Shown here in pieces: positions 3,457-52,644 of a DNA stretch of 64,000 bases. Under the pieces are notes generated by a model. The model saw only the letters and a list, made by a program, of their open reading frames with translations, ran no database searches and was not told where the DNA came from. The stretch's first letter is position 1; each line of letters opens with the position of its first letter. A program made the position numbers and the translations under genes. This DNA comes from a virus (Duplodnaviria > Caudoviricetes): positions 10,239 to 74,238 of the IMG/VR virus record IMGVR_UViG_3300028591_000183. One strand, written 5' to 3'.

Positions 3457-4937
3457 TTTTATTAGACACATGAATGATGCTCAGTTGGCTAATGTATTGT
3501 TGGATACCATCACGGCAAATGCAGATTATTGTGAGGAATATCGCATAGATTTGGGTGGCTATATCAGCTTTAATGTCGTTGATGAAGTACCGATTAAATG
3601 GGATTTGAAATATTATAAGAAAGGATATATTTGGATATGGCAGGTGGCAATTTTGATAGTGCAAAGAATGGCAAGAATGATGAGTTTTATACACAGCTCA
3701 CAGATGTATCAAAGGAGCTGATGCACTACAAGGAGCATTTCAAGGATAAAATTGTTCTGTGTAACTGTGATGACCCTACATGGTCTGCGTTTTGGAAGTA
3801 TTTCCATCTGAATTTCTCGGCTTTGGGATTAAAGAAACTGATTTCCACACATTATGACCGCAATAATCCCACCTATAAAATGGTTTATGAGGGTGGTGAT
3901 GATAATAATATCGAAGTGGGTGTAATTACACCACTTGAAGGTAATGGTGATTTCAGAAATCAGGAATGTATTGACCTCTTAAAAGAGAGCGACATTGTAG
4001 TAACAAATCCACCATTCTCTCTGTTTAGAGAATATATCGCACAGTTAATGGAATACGAAAAGAAATTTATCGTATGGAGCAATACAAATGCTATAACATA
4101 TAAAGAATTTTTCCCTTTACTGAAAGATGGTAAAGTGTGGGCTGGATATTTGTTTAACAGCACTTGCGTTTTTAGGGTTGGTGATGGATATAAATATGAT
4201 GAAAAAGTTACTCAGCAGATAAATGATGGATATAAATACGGAAAAGTTCCGAGTATTGCAACATTTACTAATTTAGATATAAAGAAACGCCATGAGAATT
4301 TAATTCTTTGGAAGAATTATACACCTGAAGAATATTCTGATTACGATAATTATGACGCTATCAATGTTAATAAAGTGACAGATATTCCTGTTGATTATGA
4401 TGGAATATTGGGTGTGCCTATTACTTTCCTTGATAAGTATAATCCTGAACAGTTTGAAATTGTTGGATTGGTGAATGGCAAAGATAATTTAGCGGGTATT
4501 AAAACCACTCGTGATTATTCTGCATTTTCTGAAACTCGACAAGATTCAACAAAAACAGGAGCAAGTGGTAAAAAAATCAATGGTAATCCTGTTATAAAAG
4601 GCAAACCAACCAAAGGTAATTATTTTACTTTTGGTTCTGAAGTCGTATATTCAGCGTATGCTCGAATCTTTATCCGTCTAAAGCATGGAAGAAAGGCGTA
4701 GAAGAAGGATTTAATCATGGTTGGGATAGAGGATATAAAAATTCATCTGAATTAACACAGAAAATCTGTGAAAAAGCAACTGATAGAATCCTTAATGCTG
4801 AATCAACTTCTTATGACGCAGGATTTAAGAAAGCGTTAATGATGGCTCAATGGTACAACAAAATCTTTCTTGGAATTGATACCGAGTATGATGTAGAAAA
4901 GATTATGAGGTTATATAAGAAGTACAAAGGAGAATGA
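3425..4937 (+). pseudogene. Phage gene interrupted by the methyltransferase cassette (N-part 3425-3624, C-part 4697-4937)
   Basis: AAGAAAGG direct repeat at 3617-3624 and 4689-4696; deleting the insert gives an in-frame ORF ...KYYKKG|VEEGFNHGWDRGY...KYKGE* whose stop overlaps the next ATG (ATGA at 4934-4937). Confidence 0.7.
3637..4701 (+). CDS. Adenine-specific DNA methyltransferase, EcoRI_methylase-like family
   Basis: KNDEFYT, VLCNCDDP and catalytic DIVVTNPPFSLFREY motifs; RBS AAGAAAGGA. Confidence 0.9.
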   Translation: MAGGNFDSAKNGKNDEFYTQLTDVSKELMHYKEHFKDKIVLCNCDDPTWSAFWKYFHLNFSALGLKKLISTHYDRNNPTYKMVYEGGDDNNIEVGVITPLEGNGDFRNQECIDLLKESDIVVTNPPFSLFREYIAQLMEYEKKFIVWSNTNAITYKEFFPLLKDGKVWAGYLFNSTCVFRVGDGYKYDEKVTQQINDGYKYGKVPSIATFTNLDIKKRHENLILWKNYTPEEYSDYDNYDAINVNKVTDIPVDYDGILGVPITFLDKYNPEQFEIVGLVNGKDNLAGIKTTRDYSAFSETRQDSTKTGASGKKINGNPVIKGKPTKGNYFTFGSEVVYSAYARIFIRLKHGRKA

Positions 4938-10000: not shown

Positions 10001-10384
10001 ATGAGGTTTTACTTATTTAAGGTTGCTTATAATAAAGTAGCCTGTGCAGAGGACAGACCACAACCATCTGCTTACGACAGTTATGATGAAACTAAGAAAG
10101 CGCAGTATCAGTACATGGGACAGAATGTGCTTGGTGCAACAATCGGATGGGTAATGACTAAGATTGTCTGTGAGAATGGAGTCTGCAATGCTACGGATGA
10201 TACTTATTGGGAAGACCCTAATATCATCCCATATTACAGAGATTTGATTCTTGCAGGAACAATCAACGCTAAGACTAACAAGCCTTGGGCTGTAGAGGAT
10301 GTATCTGAGAGATGGCGTTCTGCCGTAGCTGAGTATGTCGTACAACATACTCCTGTAGAAGAACAGGAGGTAACAAATGAGTAA
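10001..10384 (+). CDS. Hypothetical protein with C-terminal CD1375-like segment
   Basis: YRDLILAG...VEDVSERWRSAV resembles the small tail-associated CD1375 family; RBS AAGGAGG. Confidence 0.5.
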   Translation: MRFYLFKVAYNKVACAEDRPQPSAYDSYDETKKAQYQYMGQNVLGATIGWVMTKIVCENGVCNATDDTYWEDPNIIPYYRDLILAGTINAKTNKPWAVEDVSERWRSAVAEYVVQHTPVEEQEVTNE

Positions 10385-30991: not shown

Positions 30992-31576
30992 TTATCCTGC
31001 AAATGGAATACGGTATTTATCCTTAAGGATTGTGTTTATATCTTCTTCATCGACTCTTAGATATCTTTGAGTGATGTTGATTGAAGAATGGTTAAGGAAA
31101 CGGCGTGTAAGCTCTATATCATTACCGCTTTCCCTGTAAATCGTCATTCCTGCATGTTTTCTGAATGAGTGGGTTGATATGTTCTCGTAACCATCTCCAA
31201 GACATTTACATACCTGTTGGATTTTCCATTGAAGAGTACGGATGTTGGTATCAAATATATAATCATTCGGCAATTTGTTGCGCCCTACAGCGTAAGCAAT
31301 AACCATGTTATATATCTGTGACGGGATAAGGGTAGAACGGGTTTTCCCTGTCTTTTCCTCCTTGATATTGTAGTAGCAATCATTTCCGTGTTTGATAAAA
31401 GAGTTCATTGTGAGCTTCAAACAATCTCCGATACGCAACCCGCAATTTCCTGTAACTGTAAGGATAAGTGCCATTTCCTTATTTGGCTTTATCTTACCAT
31501 TACCCTTGTATAAGAGATTGATGATAGCATCAAACTGTTCATCGGTGATACATGTTGTTTTCTTATTCATAATCAA
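30992..31576 (-). CDS. Short tyrosine recombinase (catalytic domain only)
   Basis: GLRIGD, EEKTGK, THSFRK, FLNHSS, TQRYL: full R-K-H-R-H-Y set; 194 aa. Confidence 0.9.
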   Translation of the reverse strand: MIMNKKTTCITDEQFDAIINLLYKGNGKIKPNKEMALILTVTGNCGLRIGDCLKLTMNSFIKHGNDCYYNIKEEKTGKTRSTLIPSQIYNMVIAYAVGRNKLPNDYIFDTNIRTLQWKIQQVCKCLGDGYENISTHSFRKHAGMTIYRESGNDIELTRRFLNHSSINITQRYLRVDEEDINTILKDKYRIPFAG

Positions 31577-31703
31577 TTCTCCTTATATCCCATGATATCT
31601 GCCATTCTTTCTGCTTCTTCACGGGTCATATCTGCTGTAAGTGTAAGCCATAAAACATAATCATTACGGTCATAGAATATAACATTAAGTACCTTATCCA
31701 TAA

Positions 31704-33044
31704 TTACCTCCCATAGTATTTAAGAAAATCGTTACCAAAACTTGAAAGCTGTTCGTTTGTGAAGTCGTGCTGATTGTTAAGCTGTAAATCCATGACTACG
31801 TTGCAAATCTCGCTGTCTGTAAGTAGACCGCCCTGCAATCTCTGTGGCTTTTTGTTGTTCATGCCATCAAGGTAGAGCATATCGCCGTGTCCCTGTAACA
31901 TCTCTGCACCGATTTGGTCTAACACTACCATAGAGTCTGTTCTTGACATAACAGACAGACAAACCCTAGCAGGAATGTTGGCTTTTATCTGACCCGAAAT
32001 AACCTTAACAGTAGGACGCTGTGTTGCAAGTACCATGTGGATACCACTAGCTCTTGCTTTCTGTGCAAGTCTTACGATATTAGATTCAACAGATTTCTTG
32101 TAAGCTGACTCCATCATATCTGCCATCTCGTCAATCACAAGGACAATCTTAGGAAGTCTGTTGTCGGGATTTCTTCTGTTGTAATCATCAATTTCACGGC
32201 TACCTGCATTTGCCATAACTGCATAGCGTCTGTCCATCTCTTTACACAGCTTAGATAAGAGCGAGATAGCTTTCTGTGTATCAGTAATGTATTTGCAGTA
32301 GTGAAGATGTGAATAACGTCTGAACTCAACCATCTTAGGGTCAATGAGGAAAAGCTGTAAATCATCGGGAGTGTTACGCATAAGCAGGGAAGTAATAACA
32401 CCATTGAGGAATACAGATTTACCACTTCCTGTTGTACCTGCAACAAGGAGGTGTGGCATCTTGGCAAGGTCACCATAGATGTTCTCACCTTTTGCATTCT
32501 GACCGATAGGAATGATTGTCTTTGAACGTTCCATCTTGTATCTGTTATCATGCATGAAGTCACCGAAAAGAACGGTAGAAGACTTCTGAGGGACTTCAAC
32601 AACAATCTTTGCACCGTCATTGAATATCCTTGTTTCTTCGTTGTCTGTAGCGTATTTAATCTGTCTTGACAGCTTGTATGCCTTATTGATATTGTTCATG
32701 GGTCTGAACTTCATTGTGATAACGGATGCACCGTTAACACATTCAACGGGAAGGAGAGTAACATTCTCATTAAGTTCGATTGAGCGACGTATCTTTTCTG
32801 CATAAACCTGCGCCATGTTTGAGCTACCCTTTGAGGTATGATATTTGAATGTATTACCATATACAGGGTTGTATAACTTAGGAAGTCTGAATGGATAATC
32901 ATATTCGTAGTTGTCAAACAAAGGGCTGTTATCTGTTGCTCCACTTACGCCTGTAAGAGTCCTTCCAAGTGCCATCAATCCTATTGAAAACTTCATCATT
33001 TTATTTGTATTTATCATTGTACGTATCCTTTCATCTTTAACCAT
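31704..33044 (-). CDS. FtsK/SpoIIIE-family DNA translocase, no obvious gamma domain
   Basis: PHLLVAGTTGSGKS, LIDPK, VIDEMAD, LAQKARASGIH, ATQRP, GAEMLQGHGDML. Confidence 0.9.
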   Translation of the reverse strand: MVKDERIRTMINTNKMMKFSIGLMALGRTLTGVSGATDNSPLFDNYEYDYPFRLPKLYNPVYGNTFKYHTSKGSSNMAQVYAEKIRRSIELNENVTLLPVECVNGASVITMKFRPMNNINKAYKLSRQIKYATDNEETRIFNDGAKIVVEVPQKSSTVLFGDFMHDNRYKMERSKTIIPIGQNAKGENIYGDLAKMPHLLVAGTTGSGKSVFLNGVITSLLMRNTPDDLQLFLIDPKMVEFRRYSHLHYCKYITDTQKAISLLSKLCKEMDRRYAVMANAGSREIDDYNRRNPDNRLPKIVLVIDEMADMMESAYKKSVESNIVRLAQKARASGIHMVLATQRPTVKVISGQIKANIPARVCLSVMSRTDSMVVLDQIGAEMLQGHGDMLYLDGMNNKKPQRLQGGLLTDSEICNVVMDLQLNNQHDFTNEQLSSFGNDFLKYYGR

Positions 33045-33888: not shown

Positions 33889-36040
33889 TTAGTAGTATTC
33901 ATCAATACATTCGTCTGCTTCGGTGTAATACTGCCCGTCGTACCCTTCATCCATTATCTTGTCGTAACAATCCAAACAGACAAGCCTAAAAGGAATACCG
34001 TGGCAATCTCTTGTGAACTGCATATCGTTTCGTTCTACCTGCTTACCACAGCAAGCACATTCTCTGATATCTGACATAATCAATTCTCCTTGTTTAATCT
34101 TCTTAATACTTTTTAAACTCTGTATATAGTTCTTCATCTTCTCTATTCATTTGCTTTTCCAAGTAAATCATATTATCTAGTGCTTGGAGTGCTATCAACA
34201 TTGCTATATCTTTGTCTGTTCGTGGTATTTTGTCCTGTTGATAACCTATTGATAGAAAATTTTCTTCAATTTTTTTGTATGCTTCTTTTCTTGTCATAAT
34301 CAATCCTCCTTAATTAACTCAATCTTAATATCGGTTGCTTTCCATTCTTCAAGGTTTTTTAATTGATGTGTAATGATATCTGCTGTAAAAATTTGATTTT
34401 CGATTTTTTCACCTTTTGAAGTTCTCCAACTCATTCTGTATTTATACATTAAGCATTAACCTCCTTGCTATCAATTTTTATTTTGATAAAGTCCGTTTTA
34501 GTATTCGATTTTGAATACATCCTTATTACAGGATAATTGAAGTATTTTTTATAATCTTCGTTTGTTTCATAGCGGTTATCTGAAATAAGAACTCCGTCTT
34601 TAACTACTATGAAATAATCATCCTCATGTATAATATTGTTTTCAAATAAATCTCTAAGTAATATCATTAACTTACCTCCTGTAACATAATATTCAATTCG
34701 TAACCTTCGATAATTTCTAATAGCTTATCTGCAAGTTCCCTACGATTAAGGGTGTTTGTGGTGTAGTAGTAATAGCTCTTTTTGCCGTTGTCGTTATCTT
34801 CAACGCATATTGTGAAGTGTTTGTACTCAAATACTTCATCATTCATATCACGGCAAACTGCAAAGGTAACAGTACGTTCATAATCTCTGAACTGATTTTC
34901 GCTGTCATACACACAGTACCAACCCTCCACATCGTCAAGGGTAAAACCTGCATTTCTGTAAATCTCATTGGCAATAGACTTAACTATTTTCTTATTGATA
35001 AAGTACATATTAACCTCCAATCTTAATTGAATAACCGTTGTTGTGAAGTTCATCCATAAGCAGGTCAAAATCCTGTTTTCTTAAAAGTTTGATAGACTTA
35101 GGAAGACTTTCCTCTGTCTTAAAATAGAGAAAGTCCATATCTGCTGTATCAATAAATACAGTAGGATATTCATTTGCTGTAGTGTTAGTAAACTGAAATG
35201 TGAGCTTCATAATCAATCCTCCTTAATCAATGTTCCCTGCCTGTCCTGCTGATTGTAAAACAATCGCTTCAAAATCATTGCCCCAAAAAGCTATGATATT
35301 TCTTTTCTTGCACCCATTAAAGGTTATGTCTTCTGCATAATTGGAGTTCTCGGGCTTAAACATGATTCTTGCATTGTCGGGCAATTCATTTAACCAATAC
35401 TTCATTTCCTGTACTGTCATAATCAATCCTCCTTATATGATACTTCCATGAATTTAAAGATATCTGCCAAATCTGCTATGATGTGATACTGTTTGTTTGT
35501 GTAGTTCTTATTATGGGTTGCAAGATAATCAAGGTTGTCTTTTATTGCCTGTAAGAAGTCATCACCAAGAAAATTATCATTCAAGTGATACTCTTTTAAG
35601 AAAGAATCGGGACTACAATACTGCTGTTTAAATTCCTTCTCTTTAAAACGTAAAGTGATTTCATTAGCCATGTTGTTACCTCCTTAATATCCGTAGTGTA
35701 AAACAACAATCTCATTATTCCATTCAGATTGATTAAATCCATTTAATAGTGCTAAACATGGCGCATACCGCCTGTAGTCGTCATACTGCATGGCATTGGC
35801 TATCATGTTTATCATTTCCTTAAGTGGGATTTCCTTTAGCTTTTCACCATATTTGTCTTTATAGATAAAGCTGTCACCTTCAAGGAAATAAGCATCCGTT
35901 TCCTTTGCTTTCATGATTGCTGACAAAAGGTTGTTGCCTACACAACAAAGATTAAAACTTGCTATCATATCAGCCCAATAGCCATTTTCATCTTTTGTAG
36001 AAGACTTCCTTACTACATATAACCTGCTTTCATATCCCAT
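33889..36040 (-). CDS. Cluster of small leftward hypothetical genes (33889-34137, 34103-34303, 34449-34667, 34667-35008, 35010-35216, 35223-35426, 35423-35671, 35684-36040)
   Basis: ORF track; several share a GGAG(G/A)ATTGATTATG start module. Confidence 0.7.
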
Positions 36041-36114
36041 ATCATTACCTCCTTAATTGAAACTAATTAACAGTAAAAGCACTTACAGGCTGTGACACCT
36101 GTAAGTGCTGATTC

Positions 36115-39100
36115 TTAAAATGTTATGTTTGGCTTTTCCACAGCTTCAATAGCTTTTTCTATCCTGTGGTAGTAGTCAGAGAGTAGCTTTAATTCATCAA
36201 GAGTTAATTTTCTTGTTGAATTATCGTCGTTGGCTATTTCAACTATATCTGAGTTATGCCATAAACTACAGTTGGGGCGTGGCAGATTCACGCTATTACT
36301 TAAATAGTAGTTTACTTCTTTAGTGAGTATTGAGTATTCATCATGTTCTTTAAACCATGATTCTTCCTTGTCTGCTAAATTAGATATCATGCGAGTGAAT
36401 GAATGAGTTATAACCTCATTTATCTCTTTTGTATCCATTGTGAGCCATAATGAGTATGGATGACTCCATGATGATACATAGTAAATATCAAATCTCATAC
36501 ATTCTTGCGGACTTCGGTAAGAAGGAACGTTTACACCGTTACGCTTTAACCATGCTTTAAGTGAATTTGTGTTGTATCTTGGTGAACCATCCCATGTTGT
36601 ACCTTGACTTTTGATAGTGCTTTTCTCCTGCTGAAATTTCTTATATACATTCCAAAACTTATCAAAGTCAAAGTTTGCGTATTCATGCAGGGCTTCCTGC
36701 TGTTCTTCAAGAGTGTAGCCATCTGATACAAATTTCTTTTCAAAATCATTCATATTCCTGTACTTCATTTCTTCCACATTCCAAACGAATTTTGCCATAT
36801 TTTTTCCTCCTTAAATTAAATAAATTAACAGCAAAACCGCCTGTAAGCTGTGACACTTACAAGCGGTAGTAATTAAACCAAATCCATGATATCTACGATT
36901 TCTGTATCGGGCTTTTCAAGTTTGAACTCACCCCAACAAGTACAATCCGAGTTTTTTAACACGGTCTTTTGGACAAGTGCCATAAGAACGATATTGAGAT
37001 AGCAGGTTACTTTTTTGCTCAATTCATCATCCTCAATCTGATATTTTATTGAGCTAAAGAACTCAGATATCTCTTTTACAATCTGATTCTCTGTCCCGTG
37101 GTATACAGCCTGTTTTCCGATTTTCTTGTATTCCTTAAAATCGTCGCTGTAGTCGTTTGTATCAGATTCGCAAGTATCATCGTGATATTGCTTCTGAACT
37201 GACTTTGCATTGGCTTCATAAAGCCAAGTAAAGAGTTCCTTGTAGTCATCCTCATTGAAATTGCGGTTATCCCTGTGGTTGTATATCCACAAGGGTTCAC
37301 GATAGAACCCTTCGGACATTCCTACAATAGCTCCTGCACATCTCATGTAATTTACTTTACCGATAACAAAACTGCTCATTTTCTTACCTCCATTCATTGT
37401 TATTTGTTTACAGGAAAAAAGGGTTAAAGCTGTGACACCTTAACCCCTTACACTTATTCGTACTGTTTAAGCTTATCTAAATCCCATTCGTATAAATCAT
37501 AGGTACAATAACCGCTAGTCTGATAATAACCTGTAGGCTTGCCAAGTTCGTACTTCTTTACAAAATCTGCGCCCCAAGGACAATTATTAGAGTCAAGATA
37601 AGACCTGTTATTCTTCAAGTAGTCTTCATAATCATCATCGTTTTCAAAGTCTTCACGCTGTACATTCAAACATACTGTAAGAGTGGCAAAGGGTTCTTCA
37701 AAACCGCCATAATCGGGACAAAAACTGTAAAGCTGTATTGCCAACGTATTATCGGCTGTGTACCTGTTCAACTCGATTCTTGTGATTTTGAATACTTCAC
37801 CATAAAGATTTACTTCCATGCTTTTTACCTCCATTATTTAAGCTAAATTAACAGAAAATAAGAGCTATAGCTGTGATACTATAGCCCCTCATAATTACAG
37901 GTTATAAGCCTGTTTAAATGCATCCTCAAACGGGATACCTGCATTCTGTAAAGACTCAATCTGTACATATTTTGTAGCCCTATCAATGCATTCAGATTGA
38001 GTTTTACTTGCAAAAGTTTGTAGTCCGTTAAGTTGCTGTGTTAACCGCCCGTCACTATCGACGTACTTGTGATTTATAGCACAGTAATAACCTTTGTACT
38101 GTACTATTTCAAAAACCTGCCCTTCAACGTGTAACTGTGTGATATGCTTCATTTTTCTACCTCCATTCATTGTGATTTTTAACAGGAAAAAGAGGTTAGA
38201 ACTGTGACATTCTAACCTCTTATCATTAAGCTGTAGCCTTAAGTTTATTGAAGGCTGTAGCTATTTGAACTATGGATTCTTTATTACTTTCAAGTGTCTT
38301 AAGATATCCTATGAATACTTCCGATAACTTATCCTCAATATCATTTAAAGCCCCTGTGAAGTGGGTCATAGGTAGTCCCAACACGGGGTCAATGATAAAG
38401 ATGGTAGTATTAAGATTTTTCCTACACCATCCGTCTGTGGTGTACGCCTGTAAAGGCATACCACGATATTCAAAATGATAACCGATATGGTTTTCTATCT
38501 TGCCATTCTCCCAAACGGGCTTAAGCTGTGTAGGAATAAAACGTATCACGTTACACTTCTTAAGTTCTGTGATATTTTCTGTAGGTTCAATTACTTCTGT
38601 ATCCTGCTTAACCTCATTAAGTGGTGATACATTAAATGCTTTTACTAAAAAGTCGTTTCGCTTTTCTAACCACTTATTGATAATGGATACATCATCGTCA
38701 TTATCTTTAAGTTTGTTGGAAAAACAATCGTACACTTTTTTGATTAAGGAATTTACATAACCTGCTAAAACAGGCGGGTTATCACTTCCTTCAATCATGG
38801 TTACAACCTTTTTAAATTCCGTCTGATTAAAGATTGTAATAAGAGTTGCACTATCAATCTTAAAGTGTCCCTTACCCTGCTTATAGGTGATTTCTACAAC
38901 CTCATTGTCGGATAAAGCGTCGTTAACCCACTTATAATAAAGAGTGGAAGACTTTCCAAAAGGTTTTGAACTAAAAGTTAACATATACTTACCTCCATTT
39001 TCATTGTGTGCTTATTTAAGGTGAAATAGGGATACAGGCTGTGACCCCTGTATCCCTCATGATTAAGCGGTTTTTGTAATAGACTTAAACAGGCATTCGC

Positions 39101-42100
39101 CCTTAACCTCTATATACTGACCGCCGTTTCCGTTCAATATCTGACGGATAAGTTCTTTACTTATCTCTTCAATAGTGTAGCGGTTATCGCTTCTCGCCTG
39201 TACTGTAGCCACTTTTGTGTTACTTCTTACTTCTGTTTTTCCGTACTTCTTGGGGCTGTAAGACTTGCCATTATTTGACGTTGTAGCGGGCTTTTTAGGC
39301 TTGTTGTCAACGGGGGCGGGGGTTGTTACCTGTGTGGTAGTAGGGGCGGGAATAGCGTCTATTTTGCGCCTTGTACCTGTAATTTTGCCCCCGCTAAACT
39401 TAAGCGTGTAAACGTGGTAGTCATCCTGCACAATCAAGTTCCCTTCATTCATATATGGGGCTACTTTTTCAAGTACATCCTTAAATGCTACATGTACGGG
39501 AATATCCTTCACTACAGGATAAAAACGATTGTCCTTAAGGGTAAATTTGATATTGAAAATATCAAATATTTCCTTAACAGACTTTGCACTTGTCAAAGTG
39601 TCGTACCACTCACAATTACTTGCGTACTTGTATCCCAACATAGCAGACTTAACAAGCCCTGCCACTACGGGTACATTCTTTACTTCAATACTTGTTGTAG
39701 CGGGTGAATACTCATTGAATGTGTTTGTCATAATTAAACCTCCATTTATTAAATCATTGTTTTTAGTTACTTCCTTAATAGGAAAACCCCGCATAAGCTG
39801 TGACACTTACACGGGGTTATTACTTAAGCGGGTAGTAACATTCTCATTGTGTTATCAAGAAGGTCATTCCCTGCTAAAGTATTCTTAAAGCGGTTTTCAT
39901 TGTAGTTTTTGGTTTTTCGGAATGGCTCAATGTGGCTTGTAGTATCCGCTACAGCCTGTACAAGCCTTGCGCCTGTATATTCAAGTTCCCTTAAATCGGG
40001 GGCATTCTTGAAGCGATAAAGGATATCGTCACGGATTGTCTTATTGTTTTCCTGCTGTGATTTACCCATATCCTCATCGATGGGTACAACCTTGTTAAGA
40101 ATTGACCTTACCTCAAAATCAGATAACTTGATTTTATACAGGTCTTCAAAAGTATCATTGACCGCCTGCATATACTCATGCGCAAATTGTAAAGTCTGCT
40201 CAGCTTCACGGAGTTTAGCATCAATACTTCCAACATGACGTGCGCTCCATGTACGTTTTGCACTCTTTAAAGCCATGTTAAGTGTATTCTGACAAACAAC
40301 CCTTACAGGGGTCATAGCTACTTTGACCGCCCCGCTTCCATCATGCGTGTTTGTAAAGCAGATATACGGGTCAACTTTATCGCCAAGGATTGTGTACTTA
40401 TCGGGCATTTTAGCAAGTAGCCATATTGTCTTACCATCGTTAAGACTTCCCGCCGTTTCATAAGTAACACCTTCACCAAGTAAAGAGTCCGTGAACTTGA
40501 ATGCATCGATATTCTGCACAATCTGATAACGCTTACCGACTACACCAAGAACTTTACCGTCACTACTTCTGACATTGGCGTAGTTATCGGGAACTACTAC
40601 AGCGTCTTCTGTTATGAGTCGCTTCTGTAATACTTTCCAATTAAGACCCGCATAGATTATAGCGTCTTCACTTGTCGGCGCATTCTCTACCTGTGTACCC
40701 ATTCCATGCCACGGAGTCTGCCTACCTGCAAAAAACATCGTTTCAACGTTAGCACTCATTCTTTTTACCTCCATTTTTAAAAAAGATTATTTGTACCATA
40801 TTTAGTTGTAATAGCCCCCTACGGGGCTTAATCCCTGCCATAGCTGTGACACTATAACAGGGCTTTAAATTACATGGAATAAGCTATTACTTCACATCCG
40901 AACTGAATTTTATTTTCAAGTTCAATTTCTTTTTCAAGTTCGTCGTTAGCAAGCAGGTTGTCATTTTCGTTTGAAATAAACTCTTCAAGGGCTTCAACCT
41001 GTGATTTTTTAAAGCCGTCAATATAATCGGCTACTTGCACAGCATCATTCATGTACTTTTTTACATCGTAAATAAAATCCTTTACGATGTATTCAAATTG
41101 CCATTGTGAGTCTTCAATCAATTCGTTTTCGCTGTAATAGTCACTCCATGTGAGGGGCTTAACGGTCAAGTCGTCGTTAAACTCTAAATCAATACTTGGA
41201 TAAATTTCTGATAACAGGTTGTAAAGAATGTTTACGGGTTTATTATCATGTATATTTGTGAGATAGAACGTACTTGTGCGCCCCACATATACACGGGGGT
41301 CTTCAATATTGTCTTCTTTCATCCATTCTGTAAAGCAGGTGTACTCCATATCACAAAAATCATAATAAATATCATTTTCGTTATAGGATTCTTTAACACG
41401 GGGGTATTTCTCTAAAAGTTCGTCGCACTTAAAAAAAGCGTCATACAATTTCAAAGTACGGTCTTCACCCCACACATGAGATATACTTGACATATACCCC
41501 ATAACATTCTTAACCGCCTTGTTTACATCTTTATAAGTATATTTTTTACTCATAAAATTACCTCCATTTATTGAAAATCATTGTGTTTAGTTGCTTCCAT
41601 ATAGGAAAAACCCTTGTAAGCTGTGATACTTACAAGGGTTAACGGTTACGGGATAATATTATTGTCCTGTAATACTTGTGTTACTACTTCTTTAAACCGC
41701 TTTAAAATAGCAGGTTTTGAGGACTTCACAATATTTGTGGCGTTTTTTGTCCCATAGTCATATACGGTGTATACACCCTGCATTTTATCGTCACTTGATT
41801 GAGTAATGAGAAAATAGCAGGTAGTATCACTTTCAAGTCGTACTTCAACGTCATAGACTTTACTACTTGAAAAGACCTTTACAGCCGTTTTGAATGCATT
41901 CATATACTCATTCAAATATTCATGAGTCTTTTCGGGGGTTGTGCAAAAATCAAAAAACAAATACTTGTTTTCGTCAACCCTTTTGGATGTGATAAAACCC
42001 TTTTCTTGATATCTCAAAGTAATTAATAGTTCCTGCATAACTTAACCTCCATTCATTATTATTTTTGTTAACAGGTAAACCCCCGCTATACTGTGACATA

Positions 42101-44641
42101 TAACAGGGGTGTATATTATCTAAAATCACGTATTTCAATATAATGGTTAACCCAATAACCGTTTATATTTTGGGCTTTTTGTGGGTCTTCAATTGCCCTG
42201 TATCCCAACATAAAAAGCCCTTTTAATACACCCCGTTGGTATGTATCCCAATGGTTGTATTTATCCATATCGCCCGCCAAAATAGCATTTTTTATTCTAC
42301 TTTCAATGGTATTAAGTTCGTTTAATATAGATTTTTCTCTTGTCATATAAAGCCCTCCATTAAATCATTGTTTTTAGTAGGTATACCCCCTACGGAGGTA
42401 TAGAAAACCCTGCTAAACTGTGATATTTAGCAGGGTTAAAAGTTTAAGCATAGATAAACCAATTTTCATTCACCCACTTTAAAGCACTTTTTATAGTGCT
42501 AAAAGTTGCGCTTGTTGGGATATCATTTACAAATAGTCCGTACTTTTGCCCCCGTTCAAATTGATTTTTGCGGGGTATTCTGTTAACTACTTCAAAGTTT
42601 ATCCCGTGAATGTTTACAACCCTATTCATATAAAGCCCTCCATTTTTTAAATCATTAAAATTGTGATATACCCTGTGAGGATACACCCCCACAGAAAAAC
42701 CGCCCAAAATCCGTGAAAATTTAAAGCGGTAAACCCTGCCACAAAAATAGAAATAAGTTAACAGGGGCGAAAAGTCCCGTGTAAACCTGCATAAAATAGC
42801 AGGGTTAAAACCTGCCACAGTAAAAACCCGCTTAAACTATGACATTTAAGCGGGTTAAGATATTAAATATATGGGTTGTAAGCATCATTTATATAATAAG
42901 ACGACTTAAAACTCATGGATACATTAAGAACGTTGGCGGGTATATCCTTCCCGTTGTTTACTTCCAATTTGTCCCACTCTTTTTTATTAAGGGACTCAAA
43001 ACCATATAAAGCCCTAAAATCATTTATATGATTTTGTGTAGTGGGGCTGTAACTATCCCAAAATCTTATAAATTCACCGTCGCAAGTTACGGCGCAAACT
43101 ATAGTATTATAGCTTTTTAAATACTTTACCCCGTCGGACTCTATAACCTTGGCTTTACCATAATAAGACTTGTTACGACTTACAACGGGCTTTAAAATTG
43201 ATACATTCATTTTGTTAACCTCCATTTTAAAAAATCATTGTTATTAGTTGTCTATATCCCTATGGGATATATAAAACCCTGTAAAGCTGTGACACTTTAC
43301 AGGGCTATTTTTATTTTGTATATATATTCAATTTGCCTGTGTGGCTTGTACTAACTAAATCGATGTTTTTATTAAGAACGTCGGCAGGAACTTGTACCCA
43401 ATGGGTATATTCTATCCAATTATCTGTAATTTGGCGGGGGTTAATTTCACCCCGTAACATGTTTATGTCATGAGATATTAAAAGCCCGTCGGCTTTTTTA
43501 ACTAATATTTCTATTTTTGTGGCGTTACATACATTTAAAAGACTTTTTACTTTCATTGTCTTAACCTCCATTAAATCATTGTTTACTTGTTAAGCCCTGC
43601 ATAGCAGGAAAAAAGCGGGTAAACTGTGACATTTACCCGCCTTACATAGATATTAAATTTTTGTACCCTGTAAAACACCCTTGTTTTCTATCTCTTGGAT
43701 GATATCGAGTAAATCGGTGTTTTCGTCGGTGTATTCATTTAATAATGCAATTACATTATAGTTATCAATCATTTTTAAGCCCTCCATAATATCATTGTTT
43801 GCATGGTTTAATAGTTTACATACGGTGTATTAAGTAACCACTTAACGCCGTTGTAATTGTCTTTTTTTGTAAACATTGAAAAAAGTTTTTTAAGCATTCT
43901 TTAAACCTCCATTTTTTTAGTTCGTTGTCATTGGTTAACCCTGCGTTTTAGCAGGTAAAAAGCGGTTTAAGCTGTGATACTTAAACCGCCTGCAATTACT
44001 TGTTATTGTTTTCGTGATACTTAACAATGTTTTCGCACTCGCCAAGTTCTCCGCAAAAATGCCCTGTGAAGGTATACACAGGACTATAAAAACAATCTGT
44101 ACCACTACCCAAACAAATTAGTGTAGCTTTATAACGGGGGTTGCCGTTATAGTCATTCTTTAACCCTTCAAGAGTGACAATATACTCGCCGTTAACGCCT
44201 GTTATTTTGTAGCTACTTACATTGTTTTTTCTTCTTGTCATTGTTTTGACCTCCATTTATAAATCATTGTTTTTTAGTATCCTCTTTTAATAACCGTTCT
44301 GCCCCGTGCTATAGCCCGACAAGGACAAAACGTAGTTTAAAAGATAAAACCCCGTTAAGCTGTGATACTTAACAGGGTTGTTTTTAGGCTTCAATATAAA
44401 ATTTTGTATATTTGCCAAGTTCGTTGTACTGACAATTATAATACTCAAAATTGTTTAAAAACTTGTCAAACTGTAAATTATCCTCATTGTCACGGAAAAC
44501 TATAAAGCCCCAAGGGCTTAAGGGGTTCGCTTTAACAGGACAAAACCCAACGGATACACCGTTATTAAACGCCTTGCGGGCTGTGGTTTTGTTTACCCTC
44601 TTATAATTGATGCCTTCAATTTTAATAAGTTCGTTATTCAT
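36115..44641 (-). CDS. About 17 small hypothetical genes separated by the hairpins (36115-36798, 36873-37379, 37895-38152, 38226-38984, 39063-39731, 40870-41553, 41646-42038, 42116-42346, 42444-42629, 42863-43210, 43311-43556, 43996-44241, 44384-44641 and smaller)
   Basis: Mostly one ORF per hairpin interval, each with ATGGAGG(T)/AAGGAGG RBS; putative early or host-takeover genes (inference). Confidence 0.7.
37454..37819 (-). CDS. DUF4313-like protein
   Basis: LAIQL...EEPFATLTVCL...YLDSNNCP...LGKPTG...SGYCTY. Confidence 0.65.
   Translation of the reverse strand: MEVNLYGEVFKITRIELNRYTADNTLAIQLYSFCPDYGGFEEPFATLTVCLNVQREDFENDDDYEDYLKNNRSYLDSNNCPWGADFVKKYELGKPTGYYQTSGYCTYDLYEWDLDKLKQYE
39824..40759 (-). 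CDS. DUF932 / TIGR03299 family phage protein
   Basis: MSANVETMF..RQTPWHGMG...AGLNWKV...RVVCQNTL. Confidence 0.9.
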   Translation of the reverse strand: MSANVETMFFAGRQTPWHGMGTQVENAPTSEDAIIYAGLNWKVLQKRLITEDAVVVPDNYANVRSSDGKVLGVVGKRYQIVQNIDAFKFTDSLLGEGVTYETAGSLNDGKTIWLLAKMPDKYTILGDKVDPYICFTNTHDGSGAVKVAMTPVRVVCQNTLNMALKSAKRTWSARHVGSIDAKLREAEQTLQFAHEYMQAVNDTFEDLYKIKLSDFEVRSILNKVVPIDEDMGKSQQENNKTIRDDILYRFKNAPDLRELEYTGARLVQAVADTTSHIEPFRKTKNYNENRFKNTLAGNDLLDNTMRMLLPA

Positions 44642-45319
44642 AAATTAACCTCCATTTTTAAATCATTGTTTTCAGTTCCTGCTGTAGCAGGTAAAACAGG
44701 GGGCGACGTTTGACCGTCACAAGTTGTCAGTATGATGTAATATAACCCCCCTACGATTCACAAAGTATGTAAAAAGTACGGTTTAAAAACCGTCAAAAGT
44801 TCGATAAATTGGAGTTTAAATGGAGTTTTTAACAGGTCTGTTTTTACGATTCATCGTTATAGTTAACCGCCCGATATAAAACCGCCAAGTTTTAAGCCAA
44901 GTTTTAAAGGCTTCAATAAAGAAGCGGGTTAACAAGGTACACAAAATAGGTTTACTAATTTTAAGACCCTATAAACCTATCTTTTTAATGTTGCGTTCAT
45001 GGGGCTATTTGTCCCACGTTTACTCACGGATAAAGCCGATATAATCGGCGAGTAAATGCCTTTTTTTGCGACGGTCTGCACGTTCTAAGACCTGTAGCAT
45101 AAACGGTTAATTATCGAGGTTTTGAATGGCTTAAGACTTCAATCCCTTGTTTTTGCCGTTAAGCCCCTGCGGGCTTTTTATACTCCATTAACTACGCTTT
45201 TGGAGTGTCGGGGCGGTAACTTTTTCGCCCCCGTTGAAGCTGTGCTAACTGCCGACGGGCTTCAATCCATATAAACGGCTTGCGCCGTGGGTCGTATTGA
45301 TTAACTACGACTTAACACC

Positions 45320-45348
45320 ATACTACGTATGGGGTAAAACCTTGTCAA
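45320..45348 (-). promoter_or_regulatory. Sigma-A-type promoter for the leftward block
   Basis: Minus strand TTGACA-17 nt-TAGTAT. Confidence 0.6.
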
Positions 45349-45783
45349 GCGGTTTATTGTTTTATAACAAATTATTTAGCACGTATTTAATAACTACATA
45401 ATTTATTTATAAAACTTTATACATTATATATTGCATTTTATAGAATGTAAAGTATTGGTTAACTATTAGTTTATAATGTTTATAAATAGTTAATCATTAT
45501 AAACAAATTATCGCCGTTTTAGTGTACTATTTATTGGACTCAATCCGATAAATTATCGTCAATCCTAGTATTTATGCAGGGTTGCGGGTGTTTTTAAAAT
45601 ACGCAATGTTTTTAGATATTTATTAACTACATATAAAATCATGTTTATATTTTGTTTATTTTTGAGGTGTTTTTAGGGGTTACAAAATACGTAAAACCCT
45701 TTATTTATGCAGGTTATACGTGTTATAATTATTTTATAAATTAAGTGATTTTACCCTGTTTTTGGGCTATTTTTTGGGATTTT

Positions 45784-46156
45784 TTGACCGTTAAGGTCAA
45801 AATAGACAACCCGCAACCGTAGCATTTATGCGGGTTGTAAGAACGTGTTAAAATTTACCCCCTAATTTCAATTTTTTGATAGTTAACCAATATAATTATC
45901 ATTTAAGGGGTAAAATTGAATTTAGGGGCAAAGAAAACGCTTTCCTTGGCTATAACGATTTTTCGTTTATGTCAACGTATAAACTTTTTATAAACTCATT
46001 TTTACAGATAAAGCCATATAAAACAGGATACGAAACAAGGTTTTGATATATCCTCACATCATGACATAGTATTTAAAACTACGTACAAAAATTGACCTGC
46101 GGTCAAAAAAGAAATTGACCTACGGTCACAGGGTCAAAAAATGACGGGAGGTCAAT
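45784..46156. repeat. TGACC-N3/5-GGTCA inverted repeats
   Basis: 45784-45800, 46092-46106, 46115-46129, degenerate 46141-46156. Confidence 0.65.
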
Positions 46157-46606
46157 AATCAAAAAATTGATTGTAAGCATGAAATATTGATTTAAAACAA
46201 GTTTGTGGCTTTATCTGTATAACAGGAACTAAACAACCCCGCCAAAACTCCGATAAATGCAGGGCTTAACAGTACAACTCATTTAAAGCCCGTTTTAGGC
46301 GTTTTTAGCAGGGTAGTAATATAAGAGTTTAATAAAGGGGGTATAAACTCAAATAAACCCCTTTAAATGCTAAATAAAGGGTATTTAATCAATATGAGTA
46401 TTTAAGCGGGTTTTGAGTCCCTGTATAGCTTCAAATATAGGTAAATGCAGGGCTTAAACGGGACTATTTAAAGCTAAATAAGACACGGGAACGGATAAAG
46501 ACCCGTTTACAGGCATTTAAACCCCTGTAAAGCTGTAAAGAGTAGTTTAAAGCCCGATTGAGTACAATAAAACGGATTTAATTATTATTGATTATTAAGG
46601 GCTATT

Positions 46607-46863
46607 TAAGGGACTTGTTAAGAGTCCTTTTTTTGTGGGTAGTTTATAGGACTCATTAAACAAGTACAATAAACGGGACAATATAAACAAGGGTGTTTTA
46701 TGGGACTTATTAAACAAGTCTAAATTATGGGACTTATTCAATGAGGTCAATTTATGGGACTTGATTGTGATTTTAATTGAGTCCGTTTTATGGGTCATTC
46801 TGTAAATTAAGGGTAATAAATGGGACTTAATCACGGGGTAATTGAGGGCGGTTTATGGGACTT
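46607..46863 (+). repeat. Iteron-like direct repeats ATGGGACTT
   Basis: Exact copies at 46700, 46727, 46754, 46820, 46855; variants at 46607, 46646, 46673, 46788. Confidence 0.8.
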
Positions 46864-47378
46864 GATTTAGGGCGGGTTAAAAAGGAAAAAGCAACCCCTG
46901 TAAATACCATTGTTTATAAAAAATAGGGGCTTGAACTGCCCTATTTATGCGGGCTTCGGGATTTTGAATTTTTAAAACCCGCATGTTTACAGGGCTTGCA
47001 GGTTGTCTGTTACGTATTGCGTAAAATGTGGATTATACGCAACTACAATATATTGTGGTTAATATGCCTGTGATATACAATCCCTAGTACGGGGGTTTAT
47101 CCCTGCCCCCGCTTGCGCCCCCTAACCCCCTCGACCTCCCGAAAAACCAAAAAGCTCCATTAACGGAATTACGACAACCCTCAAAATACCTTCAACCCCG
47201 CATGGTTAGTGGACTTCGGAGATTTCACTCAAAATAAAGGGTGTCAAAAATCTCGGGGAAATATAAAAAGGGTCAAGATATGATAGACGGGATTACGATA
47301 ACTTCAAAGGTGTTGGCATTATTTAATCAATATGGTAGTATTGAGAAAAATAATAGTTAATCCAATGGAGGAAAAGAG

Positions 47379-47681
47379 ATGAAAGCGAAGAAAGTACCGA
47401 GTGATAAGTGGGAGATAGAGGTGTATGTAGGGACAGAGGATGGAGAGAAGAAGTATGAGAGGATAGAGGGGGATAGTGAAGAAGATGTAAAAGCGAAAGC
47501 GAAAGCGTTCAGAAGGAAGAGGATGTTGGACAGACAGAATAAGTGGCAGGGGGAGAATAAGGAGAGGTTGAGTATTGTGTTTGATAAAGGGACGAAGGAG
47601 AGGATAAGTGGGAGTGGAATGACGGTGAATAGCTTCATAAGAACGGCTGTAGAGAACGAGCTAAACAAACGAGGGCTTTAA
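47379..47681 (+). CDS. DNA-binding protein: integrase arm-binding-like N-terminus + ribbon-helix-helix-like C-terminus
   Basis: MKAKKVPSDKWEIEVYVG..DGEKKY; ERLSIVFDKGTKERI...TVNSFIRTAVENEL. Confidence 0.5.
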   Translation: MKAKKVPSDKWEIEVYVGTEDGEKKYERIEGDSEEDVKAKAKAFRRKRMLDRQNKWQGENKERLSIVFDKGTKERISGSGMTVNSFIRTAVENELNKRGL

Positions 47682-48010
47682 AGGGGTCTATTTTGGATTT
47701 TTAGATAGCGAATGATAAAATATACCTCAAAAGGATAAAAATTGAAATTAGACCCCTTACAGCGACGAAAAAGGGCATCCTAGACTCACAGAGTTTATCA
47801 AACTTTAACAGAGGGAGATAGGCTAGTGAGAACGGGATGCCCTTGTTGACGTTATTGCGTAAATTCAGAGAAACACCTATAAACCGCATGGTTGACAGCA
47901 AAAGTGACAATCTAATAAAAAGTGAGGTATCAAAAATCTCGGGGAAATACAAAAAGGAATTTTTTAGGTATGACGGAATTGTGATAACTATAGTCGAAAA
48001 GAAGGTGAAA

Positions 48011-51805: not shown

Positions 51806-51876
51806 AGGGCTATAGCGTATTGGTAGCGCAACGGACTTTGACTCCGTATGAGAGTGTTCGACTCACTCTAGTCCTG
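51806..51876 (+). tRNA. trnQ: tRNA-Gln(TTG)
   Basis: Full cloverleaf: AGGGCTA/TAGTCCT, GCGT/GCGC D stem, ACGGA-CTTTGAC-TCCGT, GAGTG-TTCGACT-CACTC; no encoded CCA. Confidence 0.92.
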
Positions 51877-51878
51877 CT

Positions 51879-52200: not shown

Positions 52201-52235
52201 GGGTGGCAATGCTTGGTCTTAAATCAGACAAGGTT

Positions 52236-52312
52236 AGGGCGGTAGCTCAGTTGGCTAGAGAGAATTGGTTTGAAAACCTTTTGAGTCGCAGGTTCGAGTC
52301 CTGCTCGTCCTA
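52236..52312 (+). tRNA. tRNA-like gene (Phe-like) with aberrant anticodon arm
   Basis: AGGGCGG/TCGTCCT acceptor, GCTC D stem, GCAGG-TTCGAGT-CCTGC; anticodon arm 20 nt instead of 17, containing TTGAAAA. Confidence 0.55.
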
Positions 52313-52554
52313 TTGCACATGAACGGTGTGCAACCCAACAAAGAATCATCCCGACAGTATTATTTATTTACTATTGGATAAACGCTGTTAAAAAACTTGC
52401 TTACATTTGTAACTGTTCTGTTACCAATAGAACAGAACCGATAACGCATTTAGTGTTTATTGTCTATGGCAACATCATGTAAGCTATATGTCTAAGTTAC
52501 AACCCATTGTTTTTGTCAGACCCGACTTTAGATGGGGGTTTATAAGACATATTT

Positions 52555-52644
52555 GCGAGGGTAGTTCAAAAGGTTAAGAACACGCCAATACCTACGGTCG
52601 CTTGGCTTGTAAAAGGAATCTGAGTTCGATTCTCAGCCCTCGAT
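52555..52644 (+). tRNA. tRNA-like gene with 13-nt anticodon loop
   Basis: CGAGGG/CCCTCG acceptor, GTTC/GAAC D stem, GCCAA/TTGGC stem with 13-nt loop, CTGAG-TTCGATT-CTCAG. Confidence 0.55.

Follow-up and report, generated by a model that had tools for sequence, protein, structure and literature searches.

Long operons of Gram-positive mobile elements contain many internal terminators that antitermination overrides (PMC8191782, PMC8955417), as in conAn of pLS20 and in Tn916 (PMC11658703). In T4-type phages, promoter-early stem-loop (PeSL) cassettes place an intergenic terminator stem-loop and a Shine-Dalgarno site on the flanks of ORFans, and recombination has taken place between copies, once inside the loop (Arbiol et al. 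2010, PMC2839356). Here we describe an array of sixteen RNA hairpins with a common 8-nt loop that lies between the small leftward genes of an uncultured gut phage (Caudoviricetes). The analysed window is a 64,000-nt stretch (positions 10,239 to 74,238) of IMG/VR record IMGVR_UViG_3300028591_000183, a single-contig phage genome of 74,238 bp with 37% G+C; window coordinates are used throughout. The structured RNA motif that makes up the array is real and strongly supported, and it is uncatalogued. In general kind it is a known one, an intergenic cassette element of terminator type as found in the accessory regions of phages, but its invariant loop is unusual.

The likeness to PeSL lies in a repeated intergenic module among small ORFans of a plastic region, with a terminator stem-loop that ends in a Shine-Dalgarno site and with insertion, deletion and relocation of single genes, all of which are found here. 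PeSL elements, however, carry a strong sigma-70 promoter, which the hairpin modules lack, and conserve their stem (GGGG..CCCC), whereas here conservation lies in the loop and the stems vary. With conAn the locus shares a G+C-based stem-loop and U-run after genes of one long Firmicute mobile-element operon, the presumed purpose of which is to block unprogrammed transcription. The architecture here, with a predicted leader of ~670 nt and an 85-aa first gene, is compatible with the long untranslated leader and small first gene with which conAn-type operons begin. In contrast, conAn-type systems ignore terminator sequence and their terminators have no shared loop, while here nearly every junction carries the common 8-nt loop, so loop-addressed terminators would constitute a new variant. 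Neither a ConAn1-like protein nor a conAn2-like RNA was identified here, with sequence similarity not compared and ConAn proteins poorly conserved. Searches of the literature turned up no described equivalent closer than PeSL and conAn.

Sixteen hairpins and their relatives

The minus-strand run of small genes starts at 44,641 and extends to at least 29,395. Its first 17 genes (44,641-36,115) have an (A)ATGGAGG ribosome site and are separated by spacers of 80-240 nt, apart from a single 35-nt gap at 43,808. Genes past 36,040 are tightly packed, have the ribosome site TAAGGAGG and no hairpins. The hairpin block encodes DUF932 and DUF4313 proteins together with many ORFans. All sixteen hairpins fold on the minus (mRNA-sense) strand within 36,078-44,379 and occupy 16 of the 17 junctions among the first 18 leftward genes, the exception being the 35-nt gap. 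Each stem starts 4-9 nt past a stop codon, comprises 11-13 uninterrupted pairs when G-U is counted, and ends 37-195 nt ahead of the next ATG. The loop consensus in the window is NRTCAYAG, represented by TGTCACAG (nine copies), TATCACAG (five), TGTCATAG (one) and GGTCACAG (one). A first-pass annotation of the sequence had reported sixteen hairpins between a stop codon and the next ribosome site, and all were found again at the same places; there is no further copy anywhere in the 74,238-bp genome.

The evidence for a conserved fold comes from covariation. In the gapless alignment of the sixteen copies, 176 of 176 stem cells pair and each of the 11 pairs has changes on both sides, in agreement with the earlier remark that the stems differ yet keep pairing. 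The covariation score is 1.10 compared with 0.27 in shuffles (0 of 500 as high), and no slid register comes close. A covariance model, R1, was built from these copies. The hairpins are listed below in the direction of transcription, with the R1 score of each.

Hairpin 1, 44348..44379, minus strand: follows the 85-aa gene (44641-44384); loop TATCACAG; 12 bp; -17.7 kcal/mol; 58.9 bits
Hairpin 2, 43960..43991, minus strand: loop TATCACAG; 12 bp; 51.0 bits
Hairpin 3, 43612..43643, minus strand: loop TGTCACAG; 12 bp; followed by a CCTGC..GCAGG mini-hairpin; 55.9 bits
Hairpin 4, 43275..43306, minus strand: loop TGTCACAG; 12 bp; 54.5 bits
Hairpin 5, 42825..42856, minus strand: loop TGTCATAG; 12 bp; at the start of a 239-nt structured spacer with decayed copies; 54.5 bits
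Weak 17th match, 42686..42733, minus strand: loop TTTCACGG; 28.7 bits
Hairpin 6, 42406..42437, minus strand: loop TATCACAG; 12 bp; 49.5 bits
Hairpin 7, 42079..42110, minus strand: loop TGTCACAG; 12 bp; two internal G-U pairs; 54.7 bits
Hairpin 8, 41609..41640, minus strand: loop TATCACAG; 12 bp; 55.6 bits
Hairpin 9, 40833..40862, minus strand: loop TGTCACAG; 11 bp; sole copy without a U-tract (tail ATTAAGCCCC and a second hairpin); 39.9 bits
Hairpin 10, 39785..39818, minus strand: follows the DUF932 gene; loop TGTCACAG; 13 bp; compensatory stem changes in the ortholog from relative L177; 58.1 bits
Hairpin 11, 39028..39057, minus strand: loop GGTCACAG; 11 bp; 47.2 bits
Hairpin 12, 38190..38221, minus strand: loop TGTCACAG; 12 bp; tail TTTTTCCTGTTAA; 58.1 bits
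Hairpin 13, 37860..37889, minus strand: loop TATCACAG; 11 bp; 53.2 bits
Hairpin 14, 37418..37449, minus strand: follows the DUF4313 gene; loop TGTCACAG; 12 bp; 56.8 bits
Hairpin 15, 36836..36867, minus strand: loop TGTCACAG; 12 bp; 59.1 bits
Hairpin 16, last of the array, 36078..36109, minus strand: loop TGTCACAG; 12 bp; 56.3 bits

Relatives were reached via a 252-aa protein of the block, homologues of which were found only in Logan and European Nucleotide Archive (ENA) gut metagenome assemblies; the protein had no match in GTDB genomes, IMG/VR, PLSDB plasmids or GenBank phages. The contigs recovered in this way (L177-L188) share the layout of the window, namely small ORFans, then DUF932 with two conserved neighbours, DUF4313, DUF8033 and DUF6908, and further on FtsK and a 192-aa recombinase, and they carry the same hairpins. 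The first-pass annotation had proposed a covariance-model search of phage DNA as a check. In 170 kb from 11 sources (two contigs overlap), all of them related uncultured phages, R1 found 116 matches, 115 of which lie on the sense strand. Scores are 30-60 bits within this clade and at most 26.8 bits in 670 kb of other phage DNA. Among 111 distinct family copies, 98.4% of 1216 stem cells are paired and every pair covaries; over window and family, covariation scores are 1.06-1.10 compared with 0.24-0.27 after shuffling.

The non-Watson-Crick pairs reveal which strand is folded. In a scan that is neutral to ascertainment (at most two non-Watson-Crick cells of any type in 11), the stem cells of the window contain 16 G-U and 0 A-C, and those of six genomes 106 G-U and 20 A-C. 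At least ten of the window's G-U pairs are internal, in precisely the seven hairpins for which the annotation had described all internal mismatches as G-U on the mRNA. The excess of G-U over A-C implies selection on the folded sense strand and, together with the covariation, upholds the view that selection acts on the folded transcript.

Outside this clade we did not find the motif. An Rfam search of 34,000-48,000 on both strands yielded only noise below threshold, with best scores of 14-32 bits compared with gathering scores of 38-167 and all E values at 0.28 or above, consistent with the annotation's failure to recognise the motif. Phages that share only DUF932 (60 IMG/VR loci) have no such hairpins, the hairpin array is absent from the distant FtsK-carrying gut phages MT835478 and MT835527, and DNA pattern scans of IMG/VR returned chance matches only. 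A CRISPR repeat, or an RNA anti-CRISPR that mimics one, was considered and rejected on the grounds that the stems vary at every position between copies.

Terminator-like anatomy, the loop and cassette exchange

By anatomy the hairpins look like intrinsic terminators, as the first-pass annotation had suggested, and both stem energy and U-tract agree with this, the U-tract with the exception of the hairpin at 40,833. Free energies, -14.8 to -21.3 kcal/mol, match those of the late terminators of this phage. The stem is followed by UUUU-CCUGUUAA, and 14 of the 16 hairpins have at least four U within 8 nt past the G-C core. The family tail has the consensus W-U-U-U-C-C-U-G-U-U-A-A with U at positions 2-3 in 114-116 of 116 members, which substantiates the broken U-tract noted earlier after most hairpins. 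A consensus terminator scan flags 11 of the 16 hairpins, with 33 terminator-like sites in the region compared with 10.4 expected. Promoters for the individual cassettes were not detected: a scan of the region gave 60 promoter-like sites compared with 59 expected, and comparison with relatives revealed no -35/-10 conserved inside the hairpin modules. Strong conserved leftward promoters are predicted only at 45.3-45.45 kb. Since there is no promoter per cassette, a single transcript must cross up to 16 terminator-like hairpins, so that either the hairpins are weak or something lets polymerase through.

The loop is 8 nt long in 113 of 116 copies. Within these 113, U1 is kept in 111, U3 in 112, A5 in 112, A7 in 106 and G8 in 110, while C never occurs at position 2 and G never at positions 4 and 6. 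U1 and G8 are able to close the helix as a wobble pair, which is never replaced by C-G and is replaced by U-A in 3 of 113. The earlier description of the loop as nearly invariant holds in the window and does not extend to the clade, where the family consensus is U-D-U-H-A-H-A-G and distant relatives use UAUCAAAG, UGUUAAAG, UUUAACCG and others. Positions 4-6 follow the genome: CAC in the window, L177 and L178, CAA in L182, L185 and L188, and UAA in L181. The stems turn over despite near-identical flanks, as at the junction of gene families F25 and F10, which reads GGGGCTATAG in the window and GGGGTTAGGG in L178. As judged from the aligned copies, ~110 in related phages, these patterns show selection on the loop around a D-U-H-A-H-A hexaloop closed by a U.G wobble. 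A loop more conserved than its stem, combined with genome-specific drift, is at the level of sequence the signature of specific recognition, and a loop reader that co-evolves with the phage would be the simplest account of it.

Two RNA partners for the loop were considered. A pseudoknot between loop ACAG and downstream CUGU was rejected, because the flanking CTGT is retained where loops lack ACAG and a linker of 4-5 nt cannot span a 12-bp helix. No anti-loop RNA was found in the leader, with no CTGTGAYA on the sense strand of 44.6-45.4 kb.

When gene order is compared between six genomes, a conserved trio (DUF932 and gene families F1 and F2) stands amid units that are gained, lost and moved one gene at a time, which bears out the proposal in the first-pass annotation that the hairpins are cassette boundaries: relatives gain, lose and relocate single-gene units bounded by hairpin modules. 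For example, F9 (DUF8033-like) lies between F1 and F2 in L179 and far upstream in the other genomes; F15, F20 and F29 also relocate, and many genes are found in one genome only. The linker and ribosome site accompany the downstream gene, and the sequence ahead of F2 is constant whatever gene precedes it. Rearrangements break close to stop codons or within linkers and show no fixed breakpoint in the loop. An identical hairpin, stem and loop alike, occurs in different gene contexts at 43,960-43,991 of the window and at 811-858 of L184, from which it follows, by this comparison of two phages, that whole hairpins move between contexts. The spacer at 42,630-42,862 is long and structured (fold z = -4.8) and holds a decayed family member and other hairpins, and L177 has two hairpins with no gene between them at 4,388-4,565; both look like remnants of lost cassettes. 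The weak 17th match at 42686..42733 is probably such a remnant.

A motif AACAATGATTTA(A)..ATGGAGG precedes most starts throughout the clade (in the window in the spacers of 36,040-44,641, e.g., at 43,575-43,557). Some of the AACAATGATTTA copies contain a two-codon mini open reading frame (ORF), ATG-ATT-TAA, which is not conserved (AACAACGATTTATGGAGG in L181).

Predicted promoters, leader and other features of the genome

The following features were predicted upstream of the first hairpin gene.

45320..45348, minus strand: predicted leftward promoter TTGACA-17-TAGTAT, by consensus match and conservation in L177 and L178
45423-45451, minus strand: second candidate leftward promoter, from the promoter scan
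44642..45312, minus strand: putative untranslated leader of ~670 nt, free of ORFs, deduced from the predicted promoters

The 5' hairpin of the leader (GTCGTA..TACGAC) is conserved and has undergone one compensatory change in L178; leader RNA structure was compared across three sequences only, which lends it weak support. Four phages have kept the leader motif AAAAACTCCATTTA, at 44,828 in the window, which is complementary to the ribosome-site module TTAAATGGAG. This motif could be a control element of translation or antitermination. Upstream of the operon, ~2.7 kb (44,650-47,350) have no ORFs. This stretch contains seven to eight copies of a AAGTCCCATAAA-type repeat (46,605-46,863, minus strand), palindromes such as TTGACCGCAGGTCAA near 46,092-46,128, and two blocks conserved in relatives (45,995-45,824 and 45,504-45,289). 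It is probably a replication-origin and operator region.

Elsewhere, the genome encodes an SPP1-type portal, an endolysin, a DnaB-like helicase, an FtsK/SpoIIIE ATPase and a small tyrosine recombinase. The closest matches of the portal, at ~34% identity, are in uncultured human-gut phages and a Clostridium innocuum phage. The FtsK/SpoIIIE-type ATPase (437 aa) and the 192-aa tyrosine-recombinase-family protein after it (30,992-33,017, minus strand) form a pair that is present in every long relative and may serve in plasmid-like maintenance, dimer resolution or DNA transfer; the recombinase lies ~5 kb downstream of the hairpin block. ARAGORN identified a tRNA with a four-base anticodon (tgaa) at 52,235-52,313, between tRNA-Gln (51,806-51,877) and tRNA-Gly (52,555-52,644). 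The plus-strand (late) terminators share a GAGCCGATT stem core at genome positions ~1,050, 16,270, 37,600 and 64,540 (the last three ~6,035, 27,360 and 54,305 in the window) and constitute a second repeat family, in which the stem and not the loop is conserved.

Candidate roles of the hairpins

We tentatively favour, at somewhat less than an even chance, a role as terminator or insulator hairpins whose U.G-closed loop would be read by a dedicated factor that controls read-through, as suggested by sequence and layout. In one long leftward early operon built of single-gene cassettes without promoters, a hairpin would form the end of each cassette, and its loop would be the address at which a dedicated factor acts in trans. 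This factor would most likely be encoded by the phage, given that genomes differ in the loop variant they prefer. Bound to the nascent hairpin, it would decide whether RNA polymerase stops or reads on: in its absence transcription from the single upstream promoter would die within the first cassettes, and in its presence the whole 8-kb block would be expressed. A terminator without the tag would be polar and silence all genes behind it, which would explain the near-perfect retention of the tag in every copy. The standard module (hairpin, U-tract and AACAATGATTTA..ATGGAGG ribosome site) would let phages swap cassettes while leaving neighbours undisturbed. A bolder version is possible though doubtful. 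In this version a phage-encoded protein would read the D-U-H-A-H-A loop on all 16 terminators and switch them together, either by hairpin-by-hairpin antitermination or by cutting into single-gene messages, making a 'terminator regulon' of plug-and-play cassettes in which the specificities of reader and loop co-evolve between sister phages (CAC, CAA, UAA).

Several points weigh against the favoured role. Known processive antiterminators need one loading site and not one per terminator, and we know of no characterised precedent for loop-directed control exerted terminator by terminator. Eight-nucleotide loops are suboptimal for termination, and the hairpin at 40,833 has no U-tract. In some rearrangements the hairpin module moves with the downstream gene, which fits a role in the 5' untranslated region as well as it fits a terminator. 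No candidate reader emerged: among 37 distinct proteins, Pfam and PHROG scans detected neither an antiterminator nor a sigma factor, and neither a nuclease nor an RNA-binding domain. For the proteins of the block itself these scans gave no informative match, and an arginine-rich N-terminus of the RNA-binding type is not obvious in any of them. Finally, the argument from polarity to retention of the tag is one that we infer. The first-pass annotation had compared the hairpins to boxB. The terminator-like part of that idea stands, and in lambda nut a phage factor reads the loop of a small RNA hairpin to suppress termination, much as would happen here, with a small first early gene as a possible regulator. 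The analogy is nevertheless loose: nut occurs once per operon, with a 5-bp stem, a GNRA-like pentaloop, a boxA and a processively resistant RNA polymerase, whereas here there are 16 copies at almost every junction, with a 12-bp stem and an 8-nt loop, and each hairpin would itself be a terminator. We found no convincing boxA (the tail UUUCCUGUUAACAA bears a weak resemblance) and no N-like arginine-rich small protein among the block proteins.

Other explanations divide the same evidence differently. The hairpins might be RNA punctuation, marking cuts or exonuclease stops so that each cistron is separately stable, with the loop as the site of an endoribonuclease or of a protective RNA-binding protein. 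We consider this somewhat unlikely, although strand-specific structure and loop conservation fit it equally and it would be the natural counterpart of the Csy4-hairpin cistron insulators of synthetic biology. The layout, a stable 3' hairpin, often with a second small hairpin overlapping the U-tract, and a very strong GGAGG ribosome site, is of a kind that would shield Firmicute mRNA from 3' exonucleases and from 5'-to-3' RNase J after a cut, and in L179, where F9 is inserted before F2, hairpin and linker move with the downstream gene. Yet the near-invariant UUU after the stem is needless for cleavage or binding and points to RNA polymerase, Pfam and PHROG scans recognised no nuclease gene in the block, and a loop mutation would harm one cistron only, predicting weaker conservation than is seen. 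The first-pass annotation's suggestion of T7-like RNase III sites fits poorly. Such sites in T7 and SP82/SPO1 are likewise intercistronic hairpins in phage early polycistronic RNA, where 3' hairpins stabilise the upstream message, but they are irregular helices of ~20 bp or longer with internal loops, whereas perfect stems of 11-13 bp with a sequence-specific loop and a U-tract are found here. About two helical turns are required, and stems of 11-13 bp are too short for bacterial RNase III, which counts against processing by that enzyme. A simpler possibility, which we judge unlikely, dispenses with a dedicated reader: the hairpins would be plain leaky terminators or insulators and recombination linkers, mild attenuation would create a 5'-to-3' gradient of expression, the conserved flanks would be homology for exchange, and the loop would be kept for intrinsic reasons (folding kinetics, a U-turn, or contact with host NusA or RNA polymerase). 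U3-H4-A5 is presumably compatible with a UNR U-turn. Terminator anatomy, the shuffling of cassettes, the identical hairpin in two contexts and the hairpin-only remnants all agree with this, and PeSL offers a precedent (PMC2839356). Against it, unconstrained terminator loops normally drift faster than stems, while here it is the stems that turn over and the loop that stays fixed in five positions and in its length of 8 nt; the U.G closing wobble, with its missing C-G and rare U-A replacements, is typical of specific recognition; the loop preference is genome-specific; and sixteen mildly efficient terminators in series would leave little distal transcript.

Two further accounts were considered. 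That the sense strand forms single-stranded DNA hairpins serving as attC-like recombination or nicking sites, the loop being read by a structure-specific enzyme such as the 192-aa tyrosine recombinase, is quite improbable. Integron attC arrays do offer one structured site per promoter-less cassette, in the same orientation, with structure prevailing over sequence, strand-specific folding and expression of the array from one upstream promoter, and here too there is one hairpin per promoter-less gene in a single orientation with cassettes reshuffled. The 12-8-12 geometry resembles tyrosine-recombinase core sites, folded DNA also tolerates G-T wobble, and a small tyrosine recombinase stands beside an FtsK-like ATPase in every long relative. 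But an attC site is 57-141 nt long, contains R''/R' core sites as well as extrahelical bases, and is a DNA substrate recognised by IntI; these hallmarks are lacking from the perfect 32-nt hairpins, which have no bulges and no RYYYAAC/GTTRRRY cores at the stem base, and there is no IntI or attI. In recombinase core sites it is the arms, rather than the spacer, that are conserved, and the hairpins show the reverse. The array fits transcription in that its U-run is invariant, its polarity is always that of the sense strand and its stems start 4-9 nt past stop codons, and the breakpoints, in linkers and near stop codons, have no fixed position in the loop. Barely credible is the idea of antisense promoters, in which the reverse complement of the loop, (T/G)TGACA, would act as the sigma-A -35 hexamer of a promoter directed at the gene upstream. 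Complementing TGTCAAAG does give a perfect TTGACA, and complementing TGTCACAG gives GTGACA; the promoter scan contains three such sites. However, a -10 lies at 16-18 nt in 6-9 of 112, which equals the frequency at control offsets, with enrichment only at a non-functional spacing of 11 nt, and stem covariation, G-U asymmetry and the U-tract would be left unexplained.

The family adds an uncatalogued structured RNA motif with ~110 covarying examples. If a factor reads the loop, the operon would be controlled in a way not described so far, with one loop tag shared by many different terminators in place of a single loading site from which polymerase becomes resistant, and it would offer a compact natural set of parts for Gram-positive engineering, with orthogonal stems, a common tag and a standard ribosome site. 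On the plain reading too, the array shows a phage insulating a long series of exchangeable promoter-less accessory genes, which are possibly host-takeover or anti-defence genes.

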